In this document: in pieces, positions 9,290 through 57,964 of the stretch
Layout: each line of letters begins with the position of its first letter
How positions within the stretch are numbered: position 1 is the first letter of the stretch
From: Octopus vulgaris
Lineage: Eukaryota
Direction: 5' to 3'
Assembly: GCA_951406725.2 (NCBI GenBank)
Contig: OX597814.1
Location: forward strand, 57,660,001-57,724,000
Length of the DNA stretch: 64,000 bases
Program-made: the position numbers and the translations under genes
The notes under the pieces: generated by a model
Told to the model about the DNA's origin: nothing
The model's input: the letters and a program-made list of their open reading frames with translations, nothing else
The model's database searches: none

Positions 9290-11400
9290 AAAATTCCCGA
9301 CCTAATAGAGATCCTAGGAGGGTAGTAGATACAGATGGTAATGGAGCGTAGAAGGCTCTGAAGCTACAAATTTGGAAATACTAATAACCCTCTAAGTTTT
9401 TTGCCTCAACACAAACAACCACAGCAAATGCTAGAGCAATATGTAGCCGCAGAAACATTGATTACAGCACCAATAACGAGACTGGAAGCCGCACGAAGAA
9501 CACCAATAGTGGAGACAGCAATAAAAATGCACCAAAAAGAACATCGCTCTCAAAAGCCACAACAATAACTAAAAGCTCTCAAAGAACAATAAAACAAAAA
9601 GGCAGATTCATCCAAGACGTGTCCTTTTTCTCTTGGGACCACTCTGACATGTTATGGGCTTAATGTGATACTGAGGACCCTAAATGACAAAAAAGTTGTT
9701 AATGTAAAGAAAAGAAGAAAACACGAAAACACCAACACAAAATATGACTGATATGAGTAAATGGTGGAAACACTTGTAATCAACAAGCTACCCAGACCAT
9801 TCCCAACAGCAGTAACACAATACTACCAACGCCACCATCCCCATCACCGCCACCTCTATCACAGATAGTGATAGTGGTAGTGATGGGGATGGTGTTATTG
9901 ATGCAAACATAAATACTATATAATTCACAAGCAATCAGGTCATACACCGCAACACGAATTAAAAAAGAAAATCATTAGCTACACATTCATGAACACAAAC
10001 ATGCAAGCATCTCACAGTACACGTAATCATCTAAATATCACAACACACTGCATCTTAAAAACATACACACCGAAGGAGTAAGAGATTTCAGGGTCATAGA
10101 AACGAAAGACTGTGCAAAGAACGGTTTGTGGAAACATCCACAACTAGCCAAAGGAACGGAATATCAGAGTTCCGTGTAATGGCCTTTGAATAAGCAGTAT
10201 ATATACATGTGGCATGAGGTTAGCACAAACTCCGAGCCACCTGCTCAACGACGTCAGATTACTCTATACAAAGGTAGTGGTCGTCCGTGATACCAGAATC
10301 TCCTAGCCACAAAACTTTATGTCAATTTTCGGTGAATATGAGGTATACACATCTCCAAGTGGGCCGCGATTTGAAGGTGGCCTAGTTGTATCCTTTTGAA
10401 AGGGTCGGGATTTCACGATACAGATTATGGCCATGCCTTAAGATTTGTAGCTGTCTACGTCTCGACAATGGCGGAGCAACAAGATGTCTACTGATGTTTG
10501 GAGGTATTTTTAGGAACGCCCTGCTCTTTAGCATTAGTGGGCGATTGGGACACTATCTTTGATGCGTGTTGAATTGTATAGGCTTAGCTGAGAAGAGGGA
10601 TGCAACTTAGTTAAGCCGGCGTTAACGGACGTAATCGTTAGCAACAAATGGTGGCTTGCTGTGACAAGGACTATTATAGTAGAATCAATAAGGTTCAATA
10701 AGGATATAGAGAAAACAAGAATAGAAGGTGAATTAGTGATATATTTACACAATGTACATAGGAAAGTGATAGCCACAGATGTGCACGCAGTGAGACTGGC
10801 CCTCGACCAATTCTTCAACGTGAAGTAAGGGGGCTGCGACTTTAGATTTAAGGTGCATACTTTAAGACATGGAGAGATGAAAGCTGTTGACAAGTCTGGT
10901 TGATGGAGGCGCAACGTTGCAACAAAACCAAAATTCAGTCTTTTGAAGATCCTAAAGGGTGCGTATTAATCAAGTCCAAGCAGTTGTGTGCGGTTTTTCT
11001 GCAGAACTCTGCAGACTATTAAGAACGAATGGTGGGCCGGACCGTAGGATTAATTTCAGTTATTGATCCTGCTACAACTTCCGGTAAGAGAAGGAGATTG
11101 TTACAAAAAGATGATGAGAGCAGTGGAAGTACGCTGCACGGGGTTAAAGTCGCCTGATTTGGATGTATATTCCATGAACATAACTTTTATATGCTCGGCT
11201 TGTTTAGAAACCTCTTGGATGATATCTGCCGCAAGTAACAGTAGAACGGAAGAACTACCTGATCTGTGAGACGAGGAGTGTTGGCGCTTCTGAGAAAGGA
11301 CGCAAACAAGAAGGACCACAACCGCCGGTGCATGTGATACATCATAGAAATGATGGGTAATGAACCTGGCATCTTTCCATCCGGAGTCAATAAAATATGA
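9290..11400 (+). mobile_element. Heavily decayed Tx1/L1-like LINE (ORF1 knuckle remnant, APE and start of RT)
   Basis: KIPDLIEILGG..VMERRRL*SYKFG (~9290-9385, degenerate knuckle lead-in); GMRLAQTPSHLLNDVRLLYTKVVVVRDTRIS (~10210); FLGTPCSLALVGDWDTIFDA (~10510, GDFN-like); KSPDLDVYS (~11150, KSPGxDG-like). Many stops. Confidence 0.55.
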
Positions 11401-12539
11401 AAAACCTGGATAGATGTAATCGACTTCCTCAGTCCCTCAAAATTACTGGCCTTGAGCCAAAAGTTAGAAAGAATTATTATTAACACTGACATCACTGGAG
11501 TCTCCTCACTTAGCTACATCTGCGGAACATTCTGGCAGCAACACCAGTTAATTTCCTTCCAAGCTTTCCTTTAACATTAGTCAGGTCTCATGGGACAGAA
11601 AGGATATTTTTGTTTGTATATGAATACATTGCACATGAGATGTGTCAACTTTGACCAGTTACCAAAATTATGTGTGCAAATGAGGAATTATTGCAAGTAA
11701 ATTATTTAAAGGGTGCAACCGTATTATAATCCTATACAGAAATTCGAATCAAATTTCCTGACACCTTCACTTTCCTAGCCTTACACCTATATTCTAGTCT
11801 GATATACTGTAATTGAATTTATGAATAATCAGATTTGAATCCGTGAAGATATCTTTTTATAGAGTGTGATAACTTATCTGATTATGGCCTGGTAATTAAA
11901 TCATATAGATAAGCTATTAATTAATTAAATAATCATATAACTGAATAATAGAAATAATTCTTCAGTACAGTTCTTGCACTGTACAATAATATTAAGAATA
12001 GTTTCGCTTCACTTTTACCCATTTTACTTAAAATAGTATTTCGATTAAATAGCAAGCATTTTGAATGTCATCTCGGCACTGTCTGGAATGTTGCATAAGC
12101 AAAAGTCGTTTTTCAGAAACAATAAAACTTCTTGTCACTATAGGGCTACATATTTTGTAGGTTCTAACTATACAGAAAACACAACAAAACATTACCGTGT
12201 CTCATTGACGTCTTTTGATTAGGCACATGAGTAAGTTTTACAACAGATAATTAGAGACCACTGAATTATCTTCTCTGCAATGAAACAGAAAGAGAAACTC
12301 CACCGCCATTCTTTTAAAATTCTAATTGTGAGTCTCTGACTTAAAATTAGTTTTAGCACACAGGTCAACTAGGTTTCTATGATTCAGTTTCACACGATAA
12401 CAAGATATTTATTCTGTATTTTCATTTTAATGTCTTACTACATTCATTTGATTGTGAAATACCCCGCTGCATGCCTTTGATCAGAACTGTTTTGTAGTTG
12501 TAGAACAAAACTTTTTTCTCCACATGCACAGACATGCAG

Positions 12540-13398
12540 GAAGTACAATTCATCTTTAGATTTCGGTTTCTGTCGAGTTTTTCGTATAGCTCTATCTAGT
12601 ATGCTCCAAAGATTTTCAATTGGGTTCATATCAGGAGATTGGTTAGACCAAAGAAGCTTTTCAGTCAGCCATTGTTGTTTCTTTTTCGCTGGGTGGCATA
12701 GAGCCTCATCTTCCATCAATAAAAACTCATTTTTCGTTATGTTATCGTGTGAATAAATCGGAAGTAGTTCTTGCTTAAGTATTTCGATGTATTTTTCAGA
12801 GTTTATGGCTCCAACACATTCGATCAGCTCAGAACTACCATTGCTGGTGAATGCTCCCCATACCATTACAGAGATACCACCATGTTTCACAGCTGGATGG
12901 ACTCGTTTCAAACCAAATTCTTGATTGGGAAGCCTCCAGACCCAAGCACTTCCACTGTCTGAAAATAATGCAAATCTGGATTCATCTGAGAAAATCACTC
13001 TATCACAAAATGAACTAGATTTTTCTGACATCTCCTTAACCCATTTCTTTCTTTTCATGATATTAATTGGTTTAAGGAGAGGGTTTCTTCTAGCTGCTCG
13101 TCCATAATACTCAAGCTTATGCAGATATGTAACACACCTTCTTAGACTAACTTCTAGCTGTTTTGCAACGTCAGAAGACTTCGAACGTTGTTCATTTTCC
13201 GCACTTCTCTTCAAACAGCAAAGTTTCCTTTCCGAGGGCCCAGGTCGGCCAGGACGAGAATATGTTGATTCTTTTCCTTGGCTTTTGAATTCTATTAACA
13301 GTAGCAAGAGGAATTTGAAGATTTTTGACAATTTTCCGCCCAACAATACGACTTCTTTGAAAATCTGACAGTTCTGCTGAATTTTTTGTGTGTGGCAT
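12540..13398 (-). pseudogene. Tc1-family (D,D34E-type) transposase pseudogene
   Basis: MPHTKNSAELSDFQRSRIVG start at 13398, then a frameshift into SRPGRP, VIFSDESRF, GGISVMVWGAF, MEDEALCH, WSNQSPDMNPIENLW. Possible left end TA-CAGGATCAGC near 13560; second TIR not found. Confidence 0.88.
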
Positions 13399-14315
13399 GG
13401 TTACTCTTCGGAAATGCTTAATATAATGGCACACGGAATGAAAAAGAATAATTACATTGTAAATTCTACACCGCTGAAAACATATTAACTGGCCTATATA
13501 TATATATAATTTCCGTATAAATTTTTCATTACTCTAATTATGCTTAATTTGCTGATCCTGTACACACTGGGAGATGATCAATTCTCTTAAATGTAAATAT
13601 AGACTACTAACTTTTGGAACTCAACCAGCAATTTACAGAGAAGTAATATCAAGTTGTTTGACAATGGAACAGCCTGGGAGAAACGAATAGTGTTCAGTTG
13701 AGAATCAAATCTTGCTTTAAGTATCAACTCACCACGCGCTTACTTAATATTCTAGAACATAATCTAGAATTTTAGAGTAACATCAAAAGATATACTTCAT
13801 ATCGTTTGGAGAAGGGAAAGGAAATATGGAATTGTGGTGTTCATGTATTAACAGCATTGCTGAAGCGAACTTGCACGAAATAAGTATCGAAACTGAAAGC
13901 AGATTCACTATTTGAAAAGAAAAACAAAAACATAGAAAGTAAAAAAGAAATCAATCCCACTCCCCAAAAATGTTCATTAGAATACGATGGAACCTAATGC
14001 AGTCACTCAAACCGCTTCAAATAGCAGCCACATTATCTTGAAACTACACCTGGCCAACTTAAAAATGCAGTCCTAGTTATAGTATACGATAATATGATGG
14101 GAAATCATGGATAAAACGCATAGGCCATTACTGATTGATTAGAGGTGTCATGGGATTAAGCGCCTACCTATTTACCAATCTACTCGCCTGTTCTTTTTGC
14201 TGCAATGAAAATATTTGGCATCAAATATCAATTTCCCTTATTTGAGAAAGAGTCCAATACTTATTGATATTTAGGGTAAAGTAGAATCAGAATTATTTAT
14301 TGTTACGAACAGTAA

Positions 14316-26398: not shown

Positions 26399-26490
26399 CC
26401 TTGGCCTGAAGAGGAGACTTGCGGTATACACCTCGCTTGGATAGTTACCACTTCAGCGGTTCCGCTTGTTATGAAACATATGTAGCACGG
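26399..26490 (+). ncRNA. Degenerate type I hammerhead with long stem II
   Basis: CUGAAGA (26406-12), stem II with GCGG/CCGC and CGCU/AGCG pairs, GAAAC-AUAU-GUA (26473-84, palindromic stem III). Stem I and the base of stem II are imperfect. Confidence 0.55.
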
Positions 26491-36724: not shown

Positions 36725-38153
36725 TAAAACTTAGATAAACTTAGATATGTTTCGACCAAAGATTGGTCCAGGCCATGTCTAACTTAATAGCACCACCTGA
36801 TAGGATTATTTGAATCCTGTTTAAGTCAAGTTTTGTTTATGGTCCATTCAAGTAGTGAGTTTTTGTTGGGTGAGTTGTATCCAATTATGGGTGGCTTATC
36901 TGGTATTCTTTGAAGGAATCTATCCAGACTCCGTTTAAAGTTGATGGGATCCTTTTCCTCTTTGATCTCTTTCGGGACAATGTTAAATAGGGAAGGGCCT
37001 GTTGAGGAAAAGAAATTATGTTGCAGTATGCATGTATGCTGTGATCTTGAATTGGGCAGGGGACGTATGGCTCGTGGTCCCAGTCTTGGATGAACCTTGA
37101 AGCTAATGTTCAGGTCGTTTGGGCAAAGTTGGCGGTATATTCTCCACATCGTACAAATGATGTACCGCTTACGGCGACGCTGGAGGGAGTAGAGTTTCAA
37201 GGCTTTAAGGCGATCCCAATAATCGAGAGCAGCCATGCCTTCAAATCGTTTAGTGAGTTCCCTCTGGGGTGATTCAAACCTCGAGATGTTTTGTCTTGTA
37301 TGGGGAGACCACAGTGGGCAGCAGTATTCGAGGTGTGGCCGTACAAAGGAGGAGAAAAGTGGTATGATGACACCTTGTTCTCTGGACCGGAAAGTTCTTA
37401 AGATCCAGGAACTCATCCTACGAGCTATATCGACCTTCTTGTTGATGTGTGCACTCCAACTGAGATCGTCATCAACAATTACACCCAGGTCTCTGATATT
37501 GTTAGAGGCTGTGAGCGGTTCCCCTGAAGGAAGAGAGTATGGCTGTTTTAGTGAGGAATTTCTTCCAAAATGCATCAGATCAAATTTTCCCTCGTTCAGT
37601 TGCATTTAGTTTCTGTCTTCCCATTGACTCACAGCATATAGATCAGACTGGAGTTGAGTTCGGTCTGCTTCTTCATTGACGATTTGCTGGAGCTTAGTGT
37701 CATCAGCAAATATTTTCACTTTGCAGTAATGTACGACACTGGAAAGGTCGTTTATGTAAATTATGAAGAGTTGCGGACCCAAGACAGTCCCCTGGGGGAT
37801 ACCGCTGGTGACTTTTGCTGATATTGAGTGGACTCCATCAACTACAACATGTTGTGTTCTATTCGCCAGGAAATACTTAATCCAGTGTAGAACTTTTCCA
37901 CGGATTCCAACATTTGCCAATTTTGAGAGTAAGATATTATGGTCTACCCTGTCGAACGCTTTACTGAAGTCAAGATATATGACATCAGAGTTCGAACCCG
38001 TTCCCAAGGCTTTGAGTACATCTTCATTGTGGTGCAAGAGCTGTGTTAGACAGTCCCTGCCACAGCGAAAGCCATGCTGATTTGCATTTAGGAGTTTGTG
38101 GGTCTCCAGGAAGTCAGCTATCCTTGATCTTAACACTCTTTCAAACACTTTTG
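36725..38153 (-). mobile_element. 5'-truncated CR1/L2-group LINE (RT plus 3' UTR), related to the 53407 element
   Basis: QHGFR, YLDFSKAFDRV, GIPQGTVLGP, FADD, LEYCCPLWSP, LYSLQRRR. Single in-frame TAA at 37606-37608. The 3' UTR shares 32 identical nt with the full-length element. Confidence 0.92.
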
Positions 38154-39435
38154 CTTTGGGTACAGTTTCCTCCATCCAGTTCCAAACCAAAGTATTGCTC
38201 AGTTAATACACAGTGGGATCGGACAGTGAGTCAATTGATTACGAAGGGAACATTTTTGTTTCTGCTTACGCATCTCATCAATTGCACTAATGTTCTAAAT
38301 CAAGCACTTTACGAAATTTCAGTGATGGTAGGTATGAAGCATCGGAGTTGTGATTCATGAAAACGAAGTTTGGGTATCATATGTGGATGTGGAGATCATG
38401 AGATTTATAGTGCCGTAGAAATTTTCTGTTCTGCAATGATTAAGCAGTCGTTACTGCTTAGCAAGCGGCTTGATCTGAGATGGTGTTTTGACATAGAAAC
38501 AATTACACCGTATAAAAAATCACGATTGCTTTTTAAAACAGTCATTAAATGTTGTCGTGATATAATTACATTCTATCTAATGGAAGCCAACTATTGGCTA
38601 ATTCTTCGAATTCATGAAGATTTTTTTGTGTTTCTATAGATTTATTTCTTCGTTATTTTCTCATTATTAATATTAAAAATATTTCAATTTCATTTCTCTT
38701 TACTTATAGGAAAGGTTAATGACTTTATATATGAATTTGATCTATGAAATATATTAATTATTTCGTGATGCCTTTGGAAAGCTGTCATGTATATACACGT
38801 ATTCCTGTAAGTATGTGTGCTTCAGTGATTAAATGTGTATGCATGAATAAAAGTGGATGCAAATTAATTACGATATACAAAAATATGCCCTGGAAGATAG
38901 AACCACTTCTGGCATGAATGACCATGGGATTTCACCTAGAAAGTTACACTCCGAGGCACAAATCCAGGCAATGAGCGTGGGATTGTACCTAAAAACTTAC
39001 AGTCCGTGGCACAAGTCTGAGTGAGGCTGTTTACGGAAGACCAACATATATATATATATAAAATGAAAGAGGAATTCGTCTGCATCCTTTCAAGAAAGGT
39101 TAACCTTTGTTGTATAAGCTTATAAAGCCCTGAGATTCTGCCCATATAGAATAAAATTTTGTTGCAGATAACTTTTAATGTATTCTTTGGTCCATCGTTG
39201 TTGAGGGTACGTGTATGTTTGTACTTTTACGCGTAAGTGGTGTTCTTAGCTAAACGTTTAGCTTGTGGAGACGGTCGTTGTTTTCTCATATAAATAAATC
39301 AAATAAATCAAAAAATAGTTTTTTATGGTATTTAATGGATCATTCTTCAAAAACATGTTATATCTCTTAACTTTGTTTTCTTTCACGTTACGACACATAT
39401 ATAAGCAAGTGCAAATATGTATGTATACAGGTAGA

Positions 39436-41100: not shown

Positions 41101-41256
41101 ACTATGAATATATATATATACACACATATATATATATATATTATATTAAATTAGAGACAAAACCACTATTAGGCAAATCAAACAATGAAAGACTTAAGCC
41201 AATACATATGATTAATTTATATTATTTAAATATGTAACAATTATTAAAAAATATAA

Positions 41257-41307
<51 letters not shown>

Positions 41308-41308
<1 letters not shown>

Positions 41309-41895
41309 GCTAAGCAATTAAGGGTTTAGCAACGAATTGCCTTACCGCACACCGAATTTAGAAATAGCAGTCAAAGAGATTATAGCTATTTCTTCTACTA
41401 AAAGGAGATCTCAGTAAAAACACAGCATTTGAAAGGCAAACACAAACAGGTAAGAGAGAATGAATTAACGGCAATCTATCATACAGTTTTAAGTCACCTA
41501 CGGACGTACGTTTCGAGATCAAGTCTTAGGAAAGCATAAGAATTAGATAATTCTACCTTACCCATACTTCTTCTCTCATCAGCGCAGGATACCAACAATC
41601 ATGAATGATTGTATATTGAATTTTGAGATACTAGAAGGCACCAACTCAACTCAGTATCAGAGCGAGCTAGAAGCCACAGCTAGTATCACCAAATTCAAAG
41701 TGTGAATGAAAGTTTGTGTCACCAGTCCCTTCCCACCCGCGTGTAGCCAAGACAAAGTGCTGTGGTCATTTACTGGGATGAATATGGTTATCAGTAACAA
41801 TGAAGGGTGAAATTAATTAATTTGGAATAATTATCAATTACACTAAGTAGTCTTCGGCATGTAAAAGCCTCATTCGAGGAAAATTTAAGTAATAC
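41308..41895 (-). mobile_element. Hammerhead-bearing non-coding unit between (TA) tracts, apparently permuted
   Basis: The motif AATGAAGGGTGAAATTAA...AGTAGTCTTCGGCA, similar to the one opening the 36048 and 4535 units, lies at the right end (~41797). Hammerhead at 41497-41588. Confidence 0.6.
41497..41588 (-). ncRNA. Intact type I hammerhead ribozyme with long stem II
   Basis: CCUGCG-CUGAUGA-GAGA[..AAGU..AGAAUU/AAUUCU..ACUU..]UCUC-GAAAC-GUAC-GUC^CGUAGG. All core nucleotides present, 6-bp stem I, palindromic stem III. Confidence 0.88.
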
Positions 41896-42264
41896 TATAT
41901 ATATAAATAAATCAGCACTAAATAATGCCTAATACGGTCTTTGCCTTGAAAAATGCAAAGGATATGTCTACTAAATATTAAATATTCACACTGTTACAAT
42001 TCATAAATAATTTGAATGTATAATATCAGATTTAAATAATATTTAATGATTATATGGGTATCTATTTACTTCTGTCATGTGTGTGTGTATACATTTCTAC
42101 GTAATTAACATATTTATATTCATGTATATTTATATTATATGCATATGTAGTCCCAACTGAGAAAAATATCTTTATTACTTATATACACGTAACTAGCAAC
42201 ACCTAAGTACCCACGGTGCATTATATGTATTTGCTAGTTCCGCACACCTACCGGATCAACAATA

Positions 42265-51627: not shown

Positions 51628-51817
51628 AGGTTACAGCTATTTCCACTATTAGATGAAGTGGAGGCATAGTTCAATGCCTGAGCAACAGCTTACAGTTTCA
51701 TCAGAGCCTCTGATATATAGTGCAATTCATGTTTGAGGCTCTGAAGAAGCTGTAAAGTGTTATTCTGGCACTCAACTATGAGTCCACCGCATCTTATAGT
51801 GGAAACAGCCGTAAGCT
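51628..51817. ncRNA. Inverted pair of long-stem-II hammerhead motifs
   Basis: Plus arm 51737-51817: GGCU-CUGAAGA-[..]-GAAAC-AGCC-GUA^AGCU. Minus arm 51628-51710: CUGAUGA-[..]-GAAAU-AGCU-GUA. The arms are diverged reverse complements separated by 24 nt. Confidence 0.65.
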
Positions 51818-53406: not shown

Positions 53407-53729
53407 TGGATTAACTGTTGAACTGGACGGACGTCTATTTGTTTCTCTCCCGAGTCAGTAGCAAGCTACACAGCTTCAAAACTAACTGACCTTAAATATA
53501 TATATATTTGTAACCACGTGTTTGCCTACAAACCCGTAAGTACGTTTTCATTTAACTACAAATTGTTATATACACCTGTTTTTCTTTTAATATCCTCAAA
53601 CAACCAAATAATCAAAAACTCACACCCTTAAGAGAGAACATTTATATATATATACACTTCTTTAACTCCCAAGAAAGAATATATATATTTTCAAAAATCA
53701 AAAGGAAAACAAACAAAAGAAAAACAAAC

Positions 53730-54959
53730 ATGACTAACTTGCAGGCCTGCAACAGACGAAATTGGTCTGATAACGAAATTGATGTTTTAATAAACACATG
53801 GCTCTCTCTTTCCCAAACAGAAAATCTAAATGTCTTGTGTTTGAATGAGATTGCCGAAAAAACATCACAAGTGGTCAACACACGATCCGTCAAACAGATT
53901 CGTAGCAAGTTGAAACATATCGAAGTATCTTTCAAACTGATAAGAGGCCATTATGAAAAGCTTCTACATATTTTCACAGTTCAAGAACAACAACAGCTAG
54001 AAAATCAGCAGCCACAACAACAACAACAACAGAATGAGCCACTCCTGGTTCCCAACACAATGGCTGACCCTGACATCGGTCAGGCACAACAACAACAACA
54101 ACAGCCACAGCAACAAGAACAACAACAGCCACTCCTCAACTCTAGCTTACTAGACGATTCACTAAATGCCAGTATCTTTTCACCGCTCTCACAGCAACCA
54201 CCACAATTATCATCATCATCATCACCACCGCTGCCACCATCGTCTTCTATCACCAAAAATACCAACAGAAAACCAAATAAGAAACCACTGCCCTCTTCCC
54301 CCACATCACCACCTCAATACTACTGCAGTAACAAAAACTTAAAGAAACATAGGAAGCAGAATGCGCCCCCCACGGCACAAACAAGAAATCCCCAAATATG
54401 CCGCTATTCACTGCGCCAGAGACTCTGCACAAATAGTGACTGCATCTTCACGCATCTACCCGGCACTAGACGCACTACTGGCCAAGGCCAAAGCACGCAT
54501 CCCACAATAACATCAACACCACCAAATAGTAAATCGAAATTCAAAACACACACAACTCGGAGTCCCAAAATCTGCCGGTATTCCCAACGTGAGAGAACAT
54601 GTCTACTGAGTGACTGTCCCTTCACTCATCTTCCAGGGACCCGACGCACAAACAGAAACGGGGCCTCAAGCCAACACACAAACCTGAATAACAATAAAAA
54701 TAGAAACACACCATGCTGCAGTAATGCTGGTCCAGTCTTTTCAGGAAGACACAAAAACAACAACAACAAAAGTGGAAACTACAACCCTATCCAACAGTGC
54801 AACCACACCTCCAGCCAAAAACTGCTCCCTAAGCAGGAAAATTCTTTTTTAGCCATGTTGAACATGGCAAAAGAGATACACAAAAACATTCTAGCCATCA
54901 CTCAACACCATCCTATGCTATTACCCCAGTGCACCAATTCCCCACATTGCTGCCACTAA
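53730..54959 (+). CDS. LINE ORF1: Myb/SANT-like N-terminus, Gln/Pro-rich linker, two CCCH zinc fingers (409 aa)
   Basis: RRNWSDNEIDVLINTW...IAEK...RSVKQIRSKLKHI; two copies of C-x8-C-x4-C-x3-H at 54399-54455 and 54573-54629. Confidence 0.85.
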   Translation: MTNLQACNRRNWSDNEIDVLINTWLSLSQTENLNVLCLNEIAEKTSQVVNTRSVKQIRSKLKHIEVSFKLIRGHYEKLLHIFTVQEQQQLENQQPQQQQQQNEPLLVPNTMADPDIGQAQQQQQQPQQQEQQQPLLNSSLLDDSLNASIFSPLSQQPPQLSSSSSPPLPPSSSITKNTNRKPNKKPLPSSPTSPPQYYCSNKNLKKHRKQNAPPTAQTRNPQICRYSLRQRLCTNSDCIFTHLPGTRRTTGQGQSTHPTITSTPPNSKSKFKTHTTRSPKICRYSQRERTCLLSDCPFTHLPGTRRTNRNGASSQHTNLNNNKNRNTPCCSNAGPVFSGRHKNNNNKSGNYNPIQQCNHTSSQKLLPKQENSFLAMLNMAKEIHKNILAITQHHPMLLPQCTNSPHCCH

Positions 54960-57900
54960 CACACACAAAAAATCCAAGCCCCCTGCAACAGTCAAAACCA
55001 GCCACTACACTAACCTCCACATTCCTACTCAATGCACAAGGTGTCAGCCCTTCCATCAATGCACAAAAATGGAAGGTCCAATTCATTGAAGACTGGGTTG
55101 GTAACCATTCACACCACATCCCTTTCTTCATTCTCACTGAGACCCACCTTGACAACTCCCACTTGGAAGCCGAAGTGAGAGTGAAGAATTTCACAACCAT
55201 CCGCGCGGATCGTATCGGCAGGAGGAAGGGTGGAACTGCCATTTTCCTGCATGATTCATTTACGGCAGATGGAAATAGTATATTCTCCAACGGCTACTGT
55301 GAATCAGTCACCGTGCACAACAAAGCCAATGATCTGACAGTAATTGGGCTCTATAGGCCGCCCCAAACACCCATACTGTGCTTTAAAGAATGCCTCAACA
55401 GCATTAAGTGCTTTATTCAACAGTGCCATTCTAGCAACATACTCATGATGGGAGACTTCAATCTACCCTGTGTTGACTGGACTACAAACTGTTTGAAACC
55501 AAGCACTCCCGCCTCAACCGCTGACAAAGAAGCAGCAGAGTCACTTTTCGACTTTACGAATGAGTTTTTCTTGTCCCAACTTGTCCTTGCACCAACAAGA
55601 CATCAGAACATTTTGGACCTAGTGTTTAGTAACCACACTAACACTATACATAACGTTACAGTGGAAAAAACCCTTCTTTCAGACCATGACATGGTTCTCT
55701 GTAACATGAAATTCCACCAGCCGAAAGCTAATCCTAGTGACCTTCCTCCAGCCCACCCATTTGACAACATGGATCTCCATAAAGCCAACTGGGATGCAAT
55801 CAGGAACGAGCTATCAAATGTTGACTGGTCCTTTACACATACACACATCTCCACCAACCATAAAACATCTTGGCAGATCTTTGTAGACACCGTCACAGAC
55901 ATATGTGCAAAACACTCCCCACCAAGACCTGTGAACAAAAAGTGCAGAATCCCCCAAAACAGAAAAACCATTATCAGAAAAATAAAAAGAACAAACAAAA
56001 AAATTAACAAACTAAAGTACTGCCAACAGCAACACACACATTCGACGGCTATCGCACTGCTTGAATCCAAAAAATATAACCTCCAACAATGCATGAAGTC
56101 CCTCATCAATAACCAAAGATCAGCTGAGGAGAAGTGGGCCATTGAAAAAATCAAACTCAACCCCAAAGTGTTCTTTTCATTTGCGAGGAAACGCAGGGTC
56201 ACTGTCTCCACTGTAGGCCCTCTAATTGACGAAACTGGCACTCTCCAAGATAATGCCAAATCCATGGCCGAGATACTGCAGAAACAATACTGCTCTGTTT
56301 TCAGCAATCCTGATATGGCCGATCTGGGCTGTATCAGTGATGTCAACCCCCAACACACTATATCGGACATAACGTTTAGTGCCCCTGATGTCTTAGCGGC
56401 GATAAACGAAATAAAACACAATTCAGCAGTAGGCCCCGATAGGTTCCCTGCTTGTGTCCTGAAGGTGTGTCGACACCAACTTGCATCTCCCCTTGCTAAT
56501 CTGTGGAGAAACTCACTGGATGCTGGCTATATTCCAAAAAACCTTCTGTCCCAGTCTGTTGTCCCAGTTTTCAAAAAGGGAAACAAGTCCCTTGCAGTGA
56601 ATTACCGTCCGATCTCACTCACCTCTCATATCATCAAGGTATTTGAGAGGGTGGTGAGATCTCAAATAACCCAATTTCTGGAAAGCAACAGACGGCTGAT
56701 CTCCAACCAACATGGGTTCCGTAATGGAAGGGACTGCCTAACGCAGCTCCTGCATCACTTTGAGGACATTTTGAGAGCTTTGGGAGAGGGCTCCAACACC
56801 GATGTCATCTACCTTGATTTCAGTAAGGCCTTCGACAGGGTCGATCACAAGATCCTATTGAAAAAACTATCCAACATTGGTGTCTCTGGAAAGTTACTGA
56901 AATGGATTAAGTGTTTCCTGACAGACAGATCTCAACATGTTGTAGTTGAAGGGGTAAAATCAAGCCCAGCCAAAGTCAGTAGTGGCGTTCCGCAAGGCAC
57001 TGTGCTGGGCCCACTTCTTTTCATCATTTACATTAATGACATTAATGACATCATCAAGCACAGCAACATAAAAATCTTTGCAGATGACTCCAAGCTACAG
57101 AAGGTCATAAATGAGGCGAGTGACCGGACATGCCTTCAGTCAGATCTACTGGCTGTTATCCAATGGGCAGAAAAAAACAATATGCTGCTGAACGAGGATA
57201 AATTTGAGCTAATCCACTTTGGAAAAGAGGATGCCCTGAAACTCCCATACTCCCTTCCTTCAGGTGAAACTCTCGCGGCGTCCAACAACATCAGAGACTT
57301 GGGAGTAATTGTGGACAACAACGTAAGCTGGGCCACTCATATAAACACCAAAGTTGACATGGCCCGCAGAATGTGTTCCTGGATTCTCAGAACTTTCCAG
57401 TCGAGAGATATCCACACCATTATCCTTCTCTTCTCCACTTTTGCCCGACCCCACCTTGAATACTGTTGTCCACTGTGGTCTCCCCACACAATACAAGGTA
57501 TCAAAAAAGTCGAAGCACCTCAAAGGGCAATCACAAAAAAGATAGATGGCATGACAGGCCTCGACTATTGGGGTCGACTAGAAAAGCTAAAACTCTATTC
57601 TCTCCAACGTCGTCGTGAGCGCTACATCATCTGCATGATGTGGAAAATATTCCATCAGCATTGCCCAAATGATGTTGGCATCACCTTTAAGGTACATCCA
57701 AGGCTTGGGCCCCGTGCCATCCGCCCAAAACAAAAATCGCACTCTCATCTCATAACAACAATACGGCACAATTATTTCACCTCAATTGGCCCCGCTCTCT
57801 TTAACATTACACCAAAACACATTAAAACAGAAACTGACCCTATAGGGTTCAAGAAGTCTTTGGACAGATTCCTTCAAGAAATCCCGGATAAACCCCCTAC

Positions 57901-57964
57901 ACCCGGATATGTCTCTGTAAACAATAACTCTCTACTTGAGTGGGCCATAGTGCCCAAATTCTGA
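54929..57964 (+). CDS. LINE ORF2: APE endonuclease + reverse transcriptase (start uncertain, no AUG)
   Basis: APE motifs NAQG, TETHL, GLYRPP, MGDFN, LDLVF, SDH; RT motifs YRPISLTS, QHGFR, YLDFSKAFD, GVPQGTVLGPLLF, FADD. The annotated start is GTG; the frame is open from 54833. Confidence 0.95.
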   Translation: MHQFPTLLPLTHTKNPSPLQQSKPATTLTSTFLLNAQGVSPSINAQKWKVQFIEDWVGNHSHHIPFFILTETHLDNSHLEAEVRVKNFTTIRADRIGRRKGGTAIFLHDSFTADGNSIFSNGYCESVTVHNKANDLTVIGLYRPPQTPILCFKECLNSIKCFIQQCHSSNILMMGDFNLPCVDWTTNCLKPSTPASTADKEAAESLFDFTNEFFLSQLVLAPTRHQNILDLVFSNHTNTIHNVTVEKTLLSDHDMVLCNMKFHQPKANPSDLPPAHPFDNMDLHKANWDAIRNELSNVDWSFTHTHISTNHKTSWQIFVDTVTDICAKHSPPRPVNKKCRIPQNRKTIIRKIKRTNKKINKLKYCQQQHTHSTAIALLESKKYNLQQCMKSLINNQRSAEEKWAIEKIKLNPKVFFSFARKRRVTVSTVGPLIDETGTLQDNAKSMAEILQKQYCSVFSNPDMADLGCISDVNPQHTISDITFSAPDVLAAINEIKHNSAVGPDRFPACVLKVCRHQLASPLANLWRNSLDAGYIPKNLLSQSVVPVFKKGNKSLAVNYRPISLTSHIIKVFERVVRSQITQFLESNRRLISNQHGFRNGRDCLTQLLHHFEDILRALGEGSNTDVIYLDFSKAFDRVDHKILLKKLSNIGVSGKLLKWIKCFLTDRSQHVVVEGVKSSPAKVSSGVPQGTVLGPLLFIIYINDINDIIKHSNIKIFADDSKLQKVINEASDRTCLQSDLLAVIQWAEKNNMLLNEDKFELIHFGKEDALKLPYSLPSGETLAASNNIRDLGVIVDNNVSWATHINTKVDMARRMCSWILRTFQSRDIHTIILLFSTFARPHLEYCCPLWSPHTIQGIKKVEAPQRAITKKIDGMTGLDYWGRLEKLKLYSLQRRRERYIICMMWKIFHQHCPNDVGITFKVHPRLGPRAIRPKQKSHSHLITTIRHNYFTSIGPALFNITPKHIKTETDPIGFKKSLDRFLQEIPDKPPTPGYVSVNNNSLLEWAIVPKF

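Follow-up and report, generated by a model that had tools for sequence, protein, structure and literature searches.

The 64,000-nt stretch of octopus DNA analysed here, referred to as the window, contains one full, solitary retrozyme monomer at 41310..41897 on the minus strand, with TA on both sides. We consider it probable that this is a solo copy of a non-LTR retrozyme whose hammerhead is predicted to cut only as a dimer, and that it was pasted into a (TA)n tract by a Penelope-like, probably Neptune, enzyme. The family is young and non-coding and belongs to a known kind, the non-LTR retrozymes, to which it adds a member with an unusually long helix II. A stand-alone ribozyme was rejected as a reading of the hammerhead, which is part of a 585-bp mobile unit. 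Comparisons with published systems refer to the consulted portions of the cited papers.

A type I hammerhead with a long helix II

The hammerhead lies at 41497..41588 on the minus strand and shows the type I arrangement of three helices with helix I open. Its elements are a 6-bp helix I (CCUGCG at 41588-41583 with CGUAGG at 41502-41497), the core CUGAUGA (41582-41576), helix II (41515..41575) and the segment GAAAC-GUAC-GUC (41514-41503), within which the palindrome ACGUACGU (41504..41511) forms loop 3 and helix III. Sequence features required of a functional core are present throughout (CUGANGA, GAAA, UH, G10.1-C11.1 and A15.1-U16.1). Helix II consists of the four pairs GAGA/UCUC, a 2x2 AG/GA internal loop and a hairpin extension; 53 nt are inserted between GAGA and UCUC, with a folding energy of -17.3 kcal/mol when the closing pairs are included. 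What sets the motif apart is that a 2x2 internal loop with a long hairpin takes the place of loop 2. An outer part of helix I (41489..41595, minus strand) carries another 2x2 internal loop beyond the first 6 bp. The two internal loops, located after 6 bp in helix I and 4 bp in helix II, are candidate partners for a contact of the loop 1 to loop 2 type. The predicted cut falls at GUC, between 41503 and 41502.

These results agree with the first-pass annotation, which had proposed a complete minus-strand hammerhead with a GUC site and had placed stem I, the heptamer, GAGA/UCUC and the GAAAC-GUAC-GUC segment where we find them; its cut site holds as a prediction. By itself, the CUGAUGA heptamer occurs in the window at chance level (8 observed versus 9.1 expected), and the core together with helix III is found about 0.5 times per shuffled window. 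No core with at least six pairs in helix I and at least four in helix II occurred in any of 200 block-shuffled windows. The local fold is modestly stable (z -2.24), with 6 of 200 shuffles equal or better. Six core matches occur in the window, and the motif at 41497-41588 is the only one with helices I and II both intact, in line with its earlier description as the best-preserved ribozyme. Changes between sub-families keep the pairing: C-G becomes U-A and G.U becomes A-U in helix I, and G-C becomes A-U in helix II, where one pair varies between G-C, G.U and A-U. A bulged base in helix II is triallelic.

On the opposite strand of the 585-bp unit there is no hammerhead core. At the gathering threshold, Rfam gave no match over the whole window, and even at E values as high as 10 it reported no hammerhead family over 41250-41950, likely because of the 53-nt insert in helix II. 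The first-pass annotation had also likened the motif to dimer-cleaving minimal hammerheads. Its dimer half is in keeping with the folding predictions given below, while the minimal half does not apply: a minimal, PLE-type hammerhead (PLE, Penelope-like element) was rejected for this motif, which has helices of 6, 4 and 2 bp and an extended helix II.

Elsewhere in the window, decayed hammerhead-like motifs with a long helix II were seen at 26406-26484 (plus strand), 51632-51704 (minus), 51741-51813 (plus) and 43005 (plus), those at 51632-51704 and 51741-51813 forming an inverted pair. The window also holds an intact-looking LINE at 53556-57964 (plus strand), which ends in a long (TA)n and encodes a 1,043-aa stop-to-stop ORF2 with an APE endonuclease and a reverse transcriptase (RT). 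Its ORF1 gives a weak Myb/SANT-like match below the curated cut-off, and a broken relative of this LINE lies at 36826-38202 (minus strand). A 318-aa stop-to-stop frame at 12444-13400 (minus strand) is presumably the remnant of a Tc1/mariner transposase.

The 585-bp unit and its family

The boundaries of the unit emerged from a search of the 2.8-Gb, microsatellite-rich genome. When 40 of the 1,923 candidates for a 301-nt query were scored, 42 matches resulted, of which 41 are full-length with 98-100% identity. Similarity stops abruptly at 41310 and 41897, and at other loci these same two ends meet in a head-to-tail arrangement, the period being 585-587 bp there and 582-594 bp across the family. 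Exact strict motifs of the closest sub-family number 63 in the genome (control 0), and at least 291 are found when sub-families about 89-93% alike are counted (controls 0). Copies are spread over many chromosomes. The longest ATG-initiated ORF in the unit is 23 aa in sense and 34 aa in antisense, and the 2-kb block containing the unit has a GC content of 35%.

Three parts of the unit, all on the minus strand, are of particular interest. The conserved 3' domain (41310..41393) comprises a AGAAAUAGC/GCUAUUUCU hairpin, the 5' arm of a junction helix and a hairpin ending in ACCC, followed by a fixed end that we call site A. The core motif of this domain occurs at 10,191 places in the genome, in several families (control 0). 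The tail domain (41782..41897) contains the 3' arm of the junction helix (41853-41861), a second ACCC-ending hairpin (41802-41844) and a second fixed end, site B. A G-rich motif, ACGC(G/U)GGUGG(G/A)AAGGG (41727..41742), is a candidate promoter or protein site and is common to a sister family with a short helix II. This sister retrozyme family (L031, L034, L142-L149) has a period of about 557 bp, a much shorter helix II and a U.U first pair, and shares the GUAC loop, the 3' domain and the G-rich motif. A genome search for short-helix motifs gave no match with a strict pattern and four with a looser one, two from the sister family and two chance-like. A sister array of five units (L167-L171) has a period of 592-594 bp and the core CUGAAGA, with 0-2 mismatches among the four units compared.

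The window copy adjoins a (TA)n target tract (41260..41308) at the 3' end of the element. The insertion apparently went into the TA tract of a fragment from another hammerhead family (at 41116-41264); this fragment is 91% like the 3' part of the hammerhead family at locus L127. Hammerhead-bearing units stand in tandem elsewhere in the family, and the window locus is a single unit, one short of the two consecutive units by which a published rule recognizes 'active' loci (bioRxiv 10.64898/2026.07.22.740005). With one unit and one cut site, this locus cannot release a circle on its own and probably represents a dead end with regard to circles.

Predicted dependence of cleavage on pairing of two copies

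Folding of the 92-nt motif, in a nearest-neighbour model that leaves aside Mg2+ and tertiary contacts, points to a ribozyme that is blocked as a monomer. In the best monomer fold (-25.6), core positions G5-G8 are paired over the cut site with a probability of about 0.6-0.7. The active monomer fold reaches -22.4, and helix III has a probability of 0.004. When two strands are folded together without constraint, the best structure is a double hammerhead at -59.4, compared with -51.2 for two separate monomers (2 x -25.6). The palindrome ACGUACGU contributes +2.4 kcal/mol as a 2-bp helix III in the monomer and -9.8 as an 8-bp duplex in the dimer. The hammerhead is therefore predicted by this model to cut only when two copies pair.

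A genome search that left loop 3 free found at least 4,201 motifs with helix II inserts of 35-64 nt (control 1). They come from many families, and most have an AUAU loop. Among the first 30 loci, a set dominated by one family, 23 have a perfectly palindromic loop 3 and the remaining 7 have a one-base variant of AUAU. Palindromic loops of eight different sequences were present in 13 of 15 sequence clusters, a tally in which two cases are forced by the search pattern, one is a tie and some clusters are perhaps chance matches. With at least 4,201 such motifs, and one tested motif missed by Rfam, hammerhead counts in genomes of this kind may be too low.

Palindromic loops and the sparing of monomeric circles have been published previously (PMC4209133; PMC3088659), and the idea that multimers are cut while monomeric circles are spared is stated in one of these papers (PMC4209133). 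A Penelope-like hammerhead was cleaved only after its protein was added (PMC11167929), and eight of nine Xenopus retrozyme dimers were left uncleaved in vitro (bioRxiv 10.64898/2026.07.22.740005). Because of these precedents, as far as the portions consulted describe them, non-cleavage in vitro, which the first-pass annotation had named as refuting the motif, is too strict a test.

RNA structure of the whole unit

Folded as a circle, the unit reaches -162.8 kcal/mol (z -5.1; none of 40 shuffles as good) with 64% of its bases paired, and helices I and II have probabilities near 1. Sub-family changes break fewer of the confident pairs than randomly placed changes do (11 versus 21, 8 versus 14 and 12 versus 20; P 0.0005-0.01) in three tests that are mutually non-independent and take their structure from the window copy. 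Double changes are few in the three sub-families (4, 2 and 3), with one set significant (P 0.024). A junction helix of nine pairs links the sequence on either side of site A and is paired in 98.9% of cells across 10 sequences, compared with 38-51% in slid controls of the whole structure. Covariation in the junction helix did not exceed its shuffle control (247/500), the single double change coming from one lineage.

Insertion footprint and candidate enzyme

Copies of the family show the traits of PLE-type insertion, namely partial tandems, an inverted arm, two fixed ends and a microsatellite target. According to a published account, PLEs are marked by partial tandems, an inverted arm and a tail on one end (PMC8557442). 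We tallied 38 distinct loci after merging duplicates, all chosen for carrying the hammerhead region. Site A (CUUAG|UA) is the fixed end of the 3' domain, and site B (41782-41795, minus strand), about 100 nt away, serves the other arm of two-armed insertions. Of the loci with a single arm, 18 end at site A, 2 at site B and 1 elsewhere. In 15 of the 17 multi-piece loci, an A end is combined with a B end and the arms stand back to back; the other 2 have an A end plus an internal one. The 5' ends of the arms are scattered, with no clustering at the cut site, which the arms cross freely. Family arms terminate in (TA)n, and sites A and B each lie about 5-20 nt 3' of a predicted hairpin ending in ACCC. 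In vitro, both strands were cut and extended by a PLE protein, which initiated at two internal positions and preferred an AC-rich stem-loop (PMC11167929). A Penelope-like enzyme, probably of the Neptune type, is the likely agent that placed the copies in (TA)n.

Candidate sources of such an enzyme are present in the genome. In a GIY-YIG search that scored 150 of 6,136 candidates, many matches lay in open frames of 781 aa. The one such frame checked contains an RT, a CX4CxxC linker and a GIY-YIG domain, a predicted composition that fits the Neptune/Nematis layout. This Neptune-type element also ends in (TA)n, with two sites 40 nt apart. The retrozyme ends show no detectable likeness to the sampled Neptune-1 ends (59 of 200 shuffles score as high). 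Neither a BLAST search of the unit against 35 GIY-YIG loci nor a junction profile run against 49 such loci found anything except apparent nested retrozyme pieces, and no sampled PLE locus had the junction domain as its own end. Thirty loci that bear the shared 3' motif all lack an RT frame. The young Neptune-type element (L085, L087-L089, L179, L183, L184) has two ORFs and CCAAT/CRE-like repeats in its pseudo-LTR (pLTR), and inspection by eye near its 3' end (L085:5060-5110) revealed a hammerhead-like motif with UUGAUAA replacing CUGAUGA (U3-A8) and a palindromic ACAUGU.

Template and transcription

Passes were compared in 35 loci, a set that excludes three sub-family loci and arms below 95% identity. 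The difference is 0.85% between passes of one locus and 1.92% between loci. Lineage variants are common to all passes of a locus in 53 of 60 cases, and private variants are confined to a single pass in 57 of 61. This pattern fits one template lineage per insertion with later mutation; a circle explains it simply, and a uniform linear multimer does so too. At locus L053, a variant present in two of three passes is not accounted for by a single circle. The closest sub-family has its longest array at L044, where the 3' unit departs at 11 sites from upstream units that match one another exactly, a pattern pointing to later duplication at the DNA level or to a template jump. A-to-I RNA editing fixed in the copies was considered and is unsupported by the private changes (A>G 12, T>C 16, G>A 11, C>T 10).

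Contigs from six presumed-RNA runs, and from one run of unclassified kind, carry the unit in pieces, some of which span the cut. Such contigs cannot show ends, strand or level, so that the lack of an end pile-up among them is no evidence either way. Two patterns for the A-box and B-box found no match in the unit. A 9-nt likeness (UAGAUUGCC) to an upstream element of two U6 genes, noticed by eye with 8 of 12 U6 loci viewed, was of chance size and was dropped. The U6 genes L131 and L133 both carry a TATA box and, roughly 60-75 nt ahead of the start, a common upstream element; other U6 copies resemble retrocopies. Separately, a 33-nt piece at 42054-42086 occurs within longer unrelated contigs of three presumed-RNA runs; with no AG on its 5' side, it is probably a repeat fragment and not a micro-exon.

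Proposed cycle and alternative explanations

In the cycle that we propose, tandem loci would be transcribed into multimers, in which neighbouring hammerheads are predicted to pair through the ACGUACGU palindrome and to cut at GUC, yielding 585-nt monomers. A monomer would fold with its ends together and its core blocked, and would likely be ligated into a stable circle and not be recut, a step suggested by folding and by other retrozymes. A Penelope-like protein, the presumed enzyme behind the observed ends, would nick both strands of a (TA)n tract. Reverse transcription would begin at two fixed internal points of the RNA, immediately 3' of the respective ACCC-ending hairpins; its products would be back-to-back arms in which units run head to tail and the 5' ends vary. 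Beyond this, we put forward as a tentative possibility that the elements are circular RNA parasites that combine their own two-site Penelope RT start signal with a dimer-gated, self-blocking switch, the long-helix-II hammerhead. The signal would consist of the two ACCC hairpins around the junction helix, with ~10,000 genomic copies, and is unlike the sampled autonomous elements.

The same element and enzyme could instead use an uncleaved linear multimer as template, with the circle unneeded and a slow or protein-assisted hammerhead dispensable for insertion, an explanation that we regard as rather unlikely. Work on the anole PLE favours it: the main substrate was uncleaved RNA, hammerhead mutants inserted normally and no RNA-seq reads ended at the cut (PMC11167929). 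In the octopus family, arms cross the cut site, where 5' ends do not pile up; with the exception of L044, no arm in the 38 loci reaches a length of two units; and the passes at L053 are non-identical. Against a linear template, several arms span two cut sites, a predicted active dimer in cis, and hammerhead pairs and palindromes are retained across families. The variants also argue against it, with 57 of the 61 private variants in a single pass and no recurrent unit-specific differences from a parent array, as does the near identity of the sister array (0-2 mismatches in the four units compared).

Two further explanations question the independence of the unit or its spread through RNA. It is very improbable, in our view, that the unit is the detached pseudo-LTR of an unsampled autonomous Penelope-like element and not an independently replicating RNA. 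Xenopus retrozymes do resemble pLTRs (bioRxiv 10.64898/2026.07.22.740005), and GIY-YIG scoring covered 150 of 6,136 candidates; yet units adjoin the next unit or (TA)n directly in the family loci examined, the 30 loci with the shared 3' motif lack an RT frame, and the unit folds as a self-contained whole. The unit may nevertheless have originated as a pLTR. A dispersed satellite spread at the DNA level, its hammerhead a chance product or a fossil, is largely refuted and retains scarcely any credence. Local tandem duplication at L044 is what such a satellite would predict, whereas the fixed 3' ends, variable 5' ends, inversions, (TA)n targets and distribution over many chromosomes oppose it, together with the structure-keeping changes and the absence of comparable motifs in 200 shuffles.

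Relation to known elements and significance

Both the retrozyme class and the idea of dimer-dependent cleavage are already known. Metazoan non-LTR retrozymes, described from coral, mussel and axolotl (PMC7229834; bioRxiv 10.64898/2026.07.22.740005), resemble the octopus family in their non-coding, low-GC tandem units with one type I hammerhead each, their highly self-paired predicted circles and their coexistence with PLEs. Axolotl HHR_Amex2, which cleaves better as a dimer, has a helix III of 2 bp with a tetraloop, as in the octopus motif. At 585 bp, the octopus unit is above the 150-450 bp given in one account (PMC7229834) and within the 51-972 bp of the other (bioRxiv 10.64898/2026.07.22.740005). 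It differs from these retrozymes in having an internal loop and long hairpin instead of loop 2, and its monomer core is predicted to be blocked, whereas most of the metazoan circles described leave the hammerhead free. Circles and cleavage are known for the metazoan retrozymes, whereas the octopus family is known from sequence and predicted folding.

Canonical metazoan type I hammerheads that function as dimers (PMC4209133; PMC3088659) likewise have a helix I of 6 bp, a helix II of 4 bp, a helix III of 1-2 bp and a palindromic loop. The 53-nt insert of the octopus helix II contrasts with the long helices II of 6-8 bp in the published examples consulted (PMC4209133; PMC13725137, from viruses). 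Craig et al. mention cores 35-50 nt apart that were not fitted by their descriptor (PMC8557442). The minimal hammerheads of PLE pseudo-LTRs share dimer dependence with the octopus motif but have a helix I of 4-5 bp and little or no helix III (PMC4209133). EN+ PLEs of the Neptune and Poseidon types (PMC8557442; PMC11167929) share partial tandems, an inverted 5'-truncated arm, two fixed ends and (TA)n with the octopus family, as well as a hammerhead near the end; their AC-rich stem-loop, an internal start site, parallels the two ACCC hairpins. Unlike these elements, the unit has no ORF, its tail is about 100 nt compared with 30-40 nt in PLEs, and its ends do not resemble those of the sampled Neptune families. 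The literature searched contained no cephalopod retrozymes or hammerheads of this form; supplementary lists such as file S1 of Craig et al. may bear on novelty.

In the consulted portions of the papers cited here, the return of animal retrozymes to DNA by PLE enzymes acting on circular RNA is proposed and not demonstrated. The added value of the octopus family is testability: its ends map two start sites to single hairpins, its sub-families supply naturally occurring variants of the structure, and the same genome contains an intact Neptune-type ORF. If the elements are indeed circular RNA parasites of the kind tentatively outlined above, the long-proposed circle-to-genome cycle could be rebuilt in vitro with the genome's own Neptune ORF.
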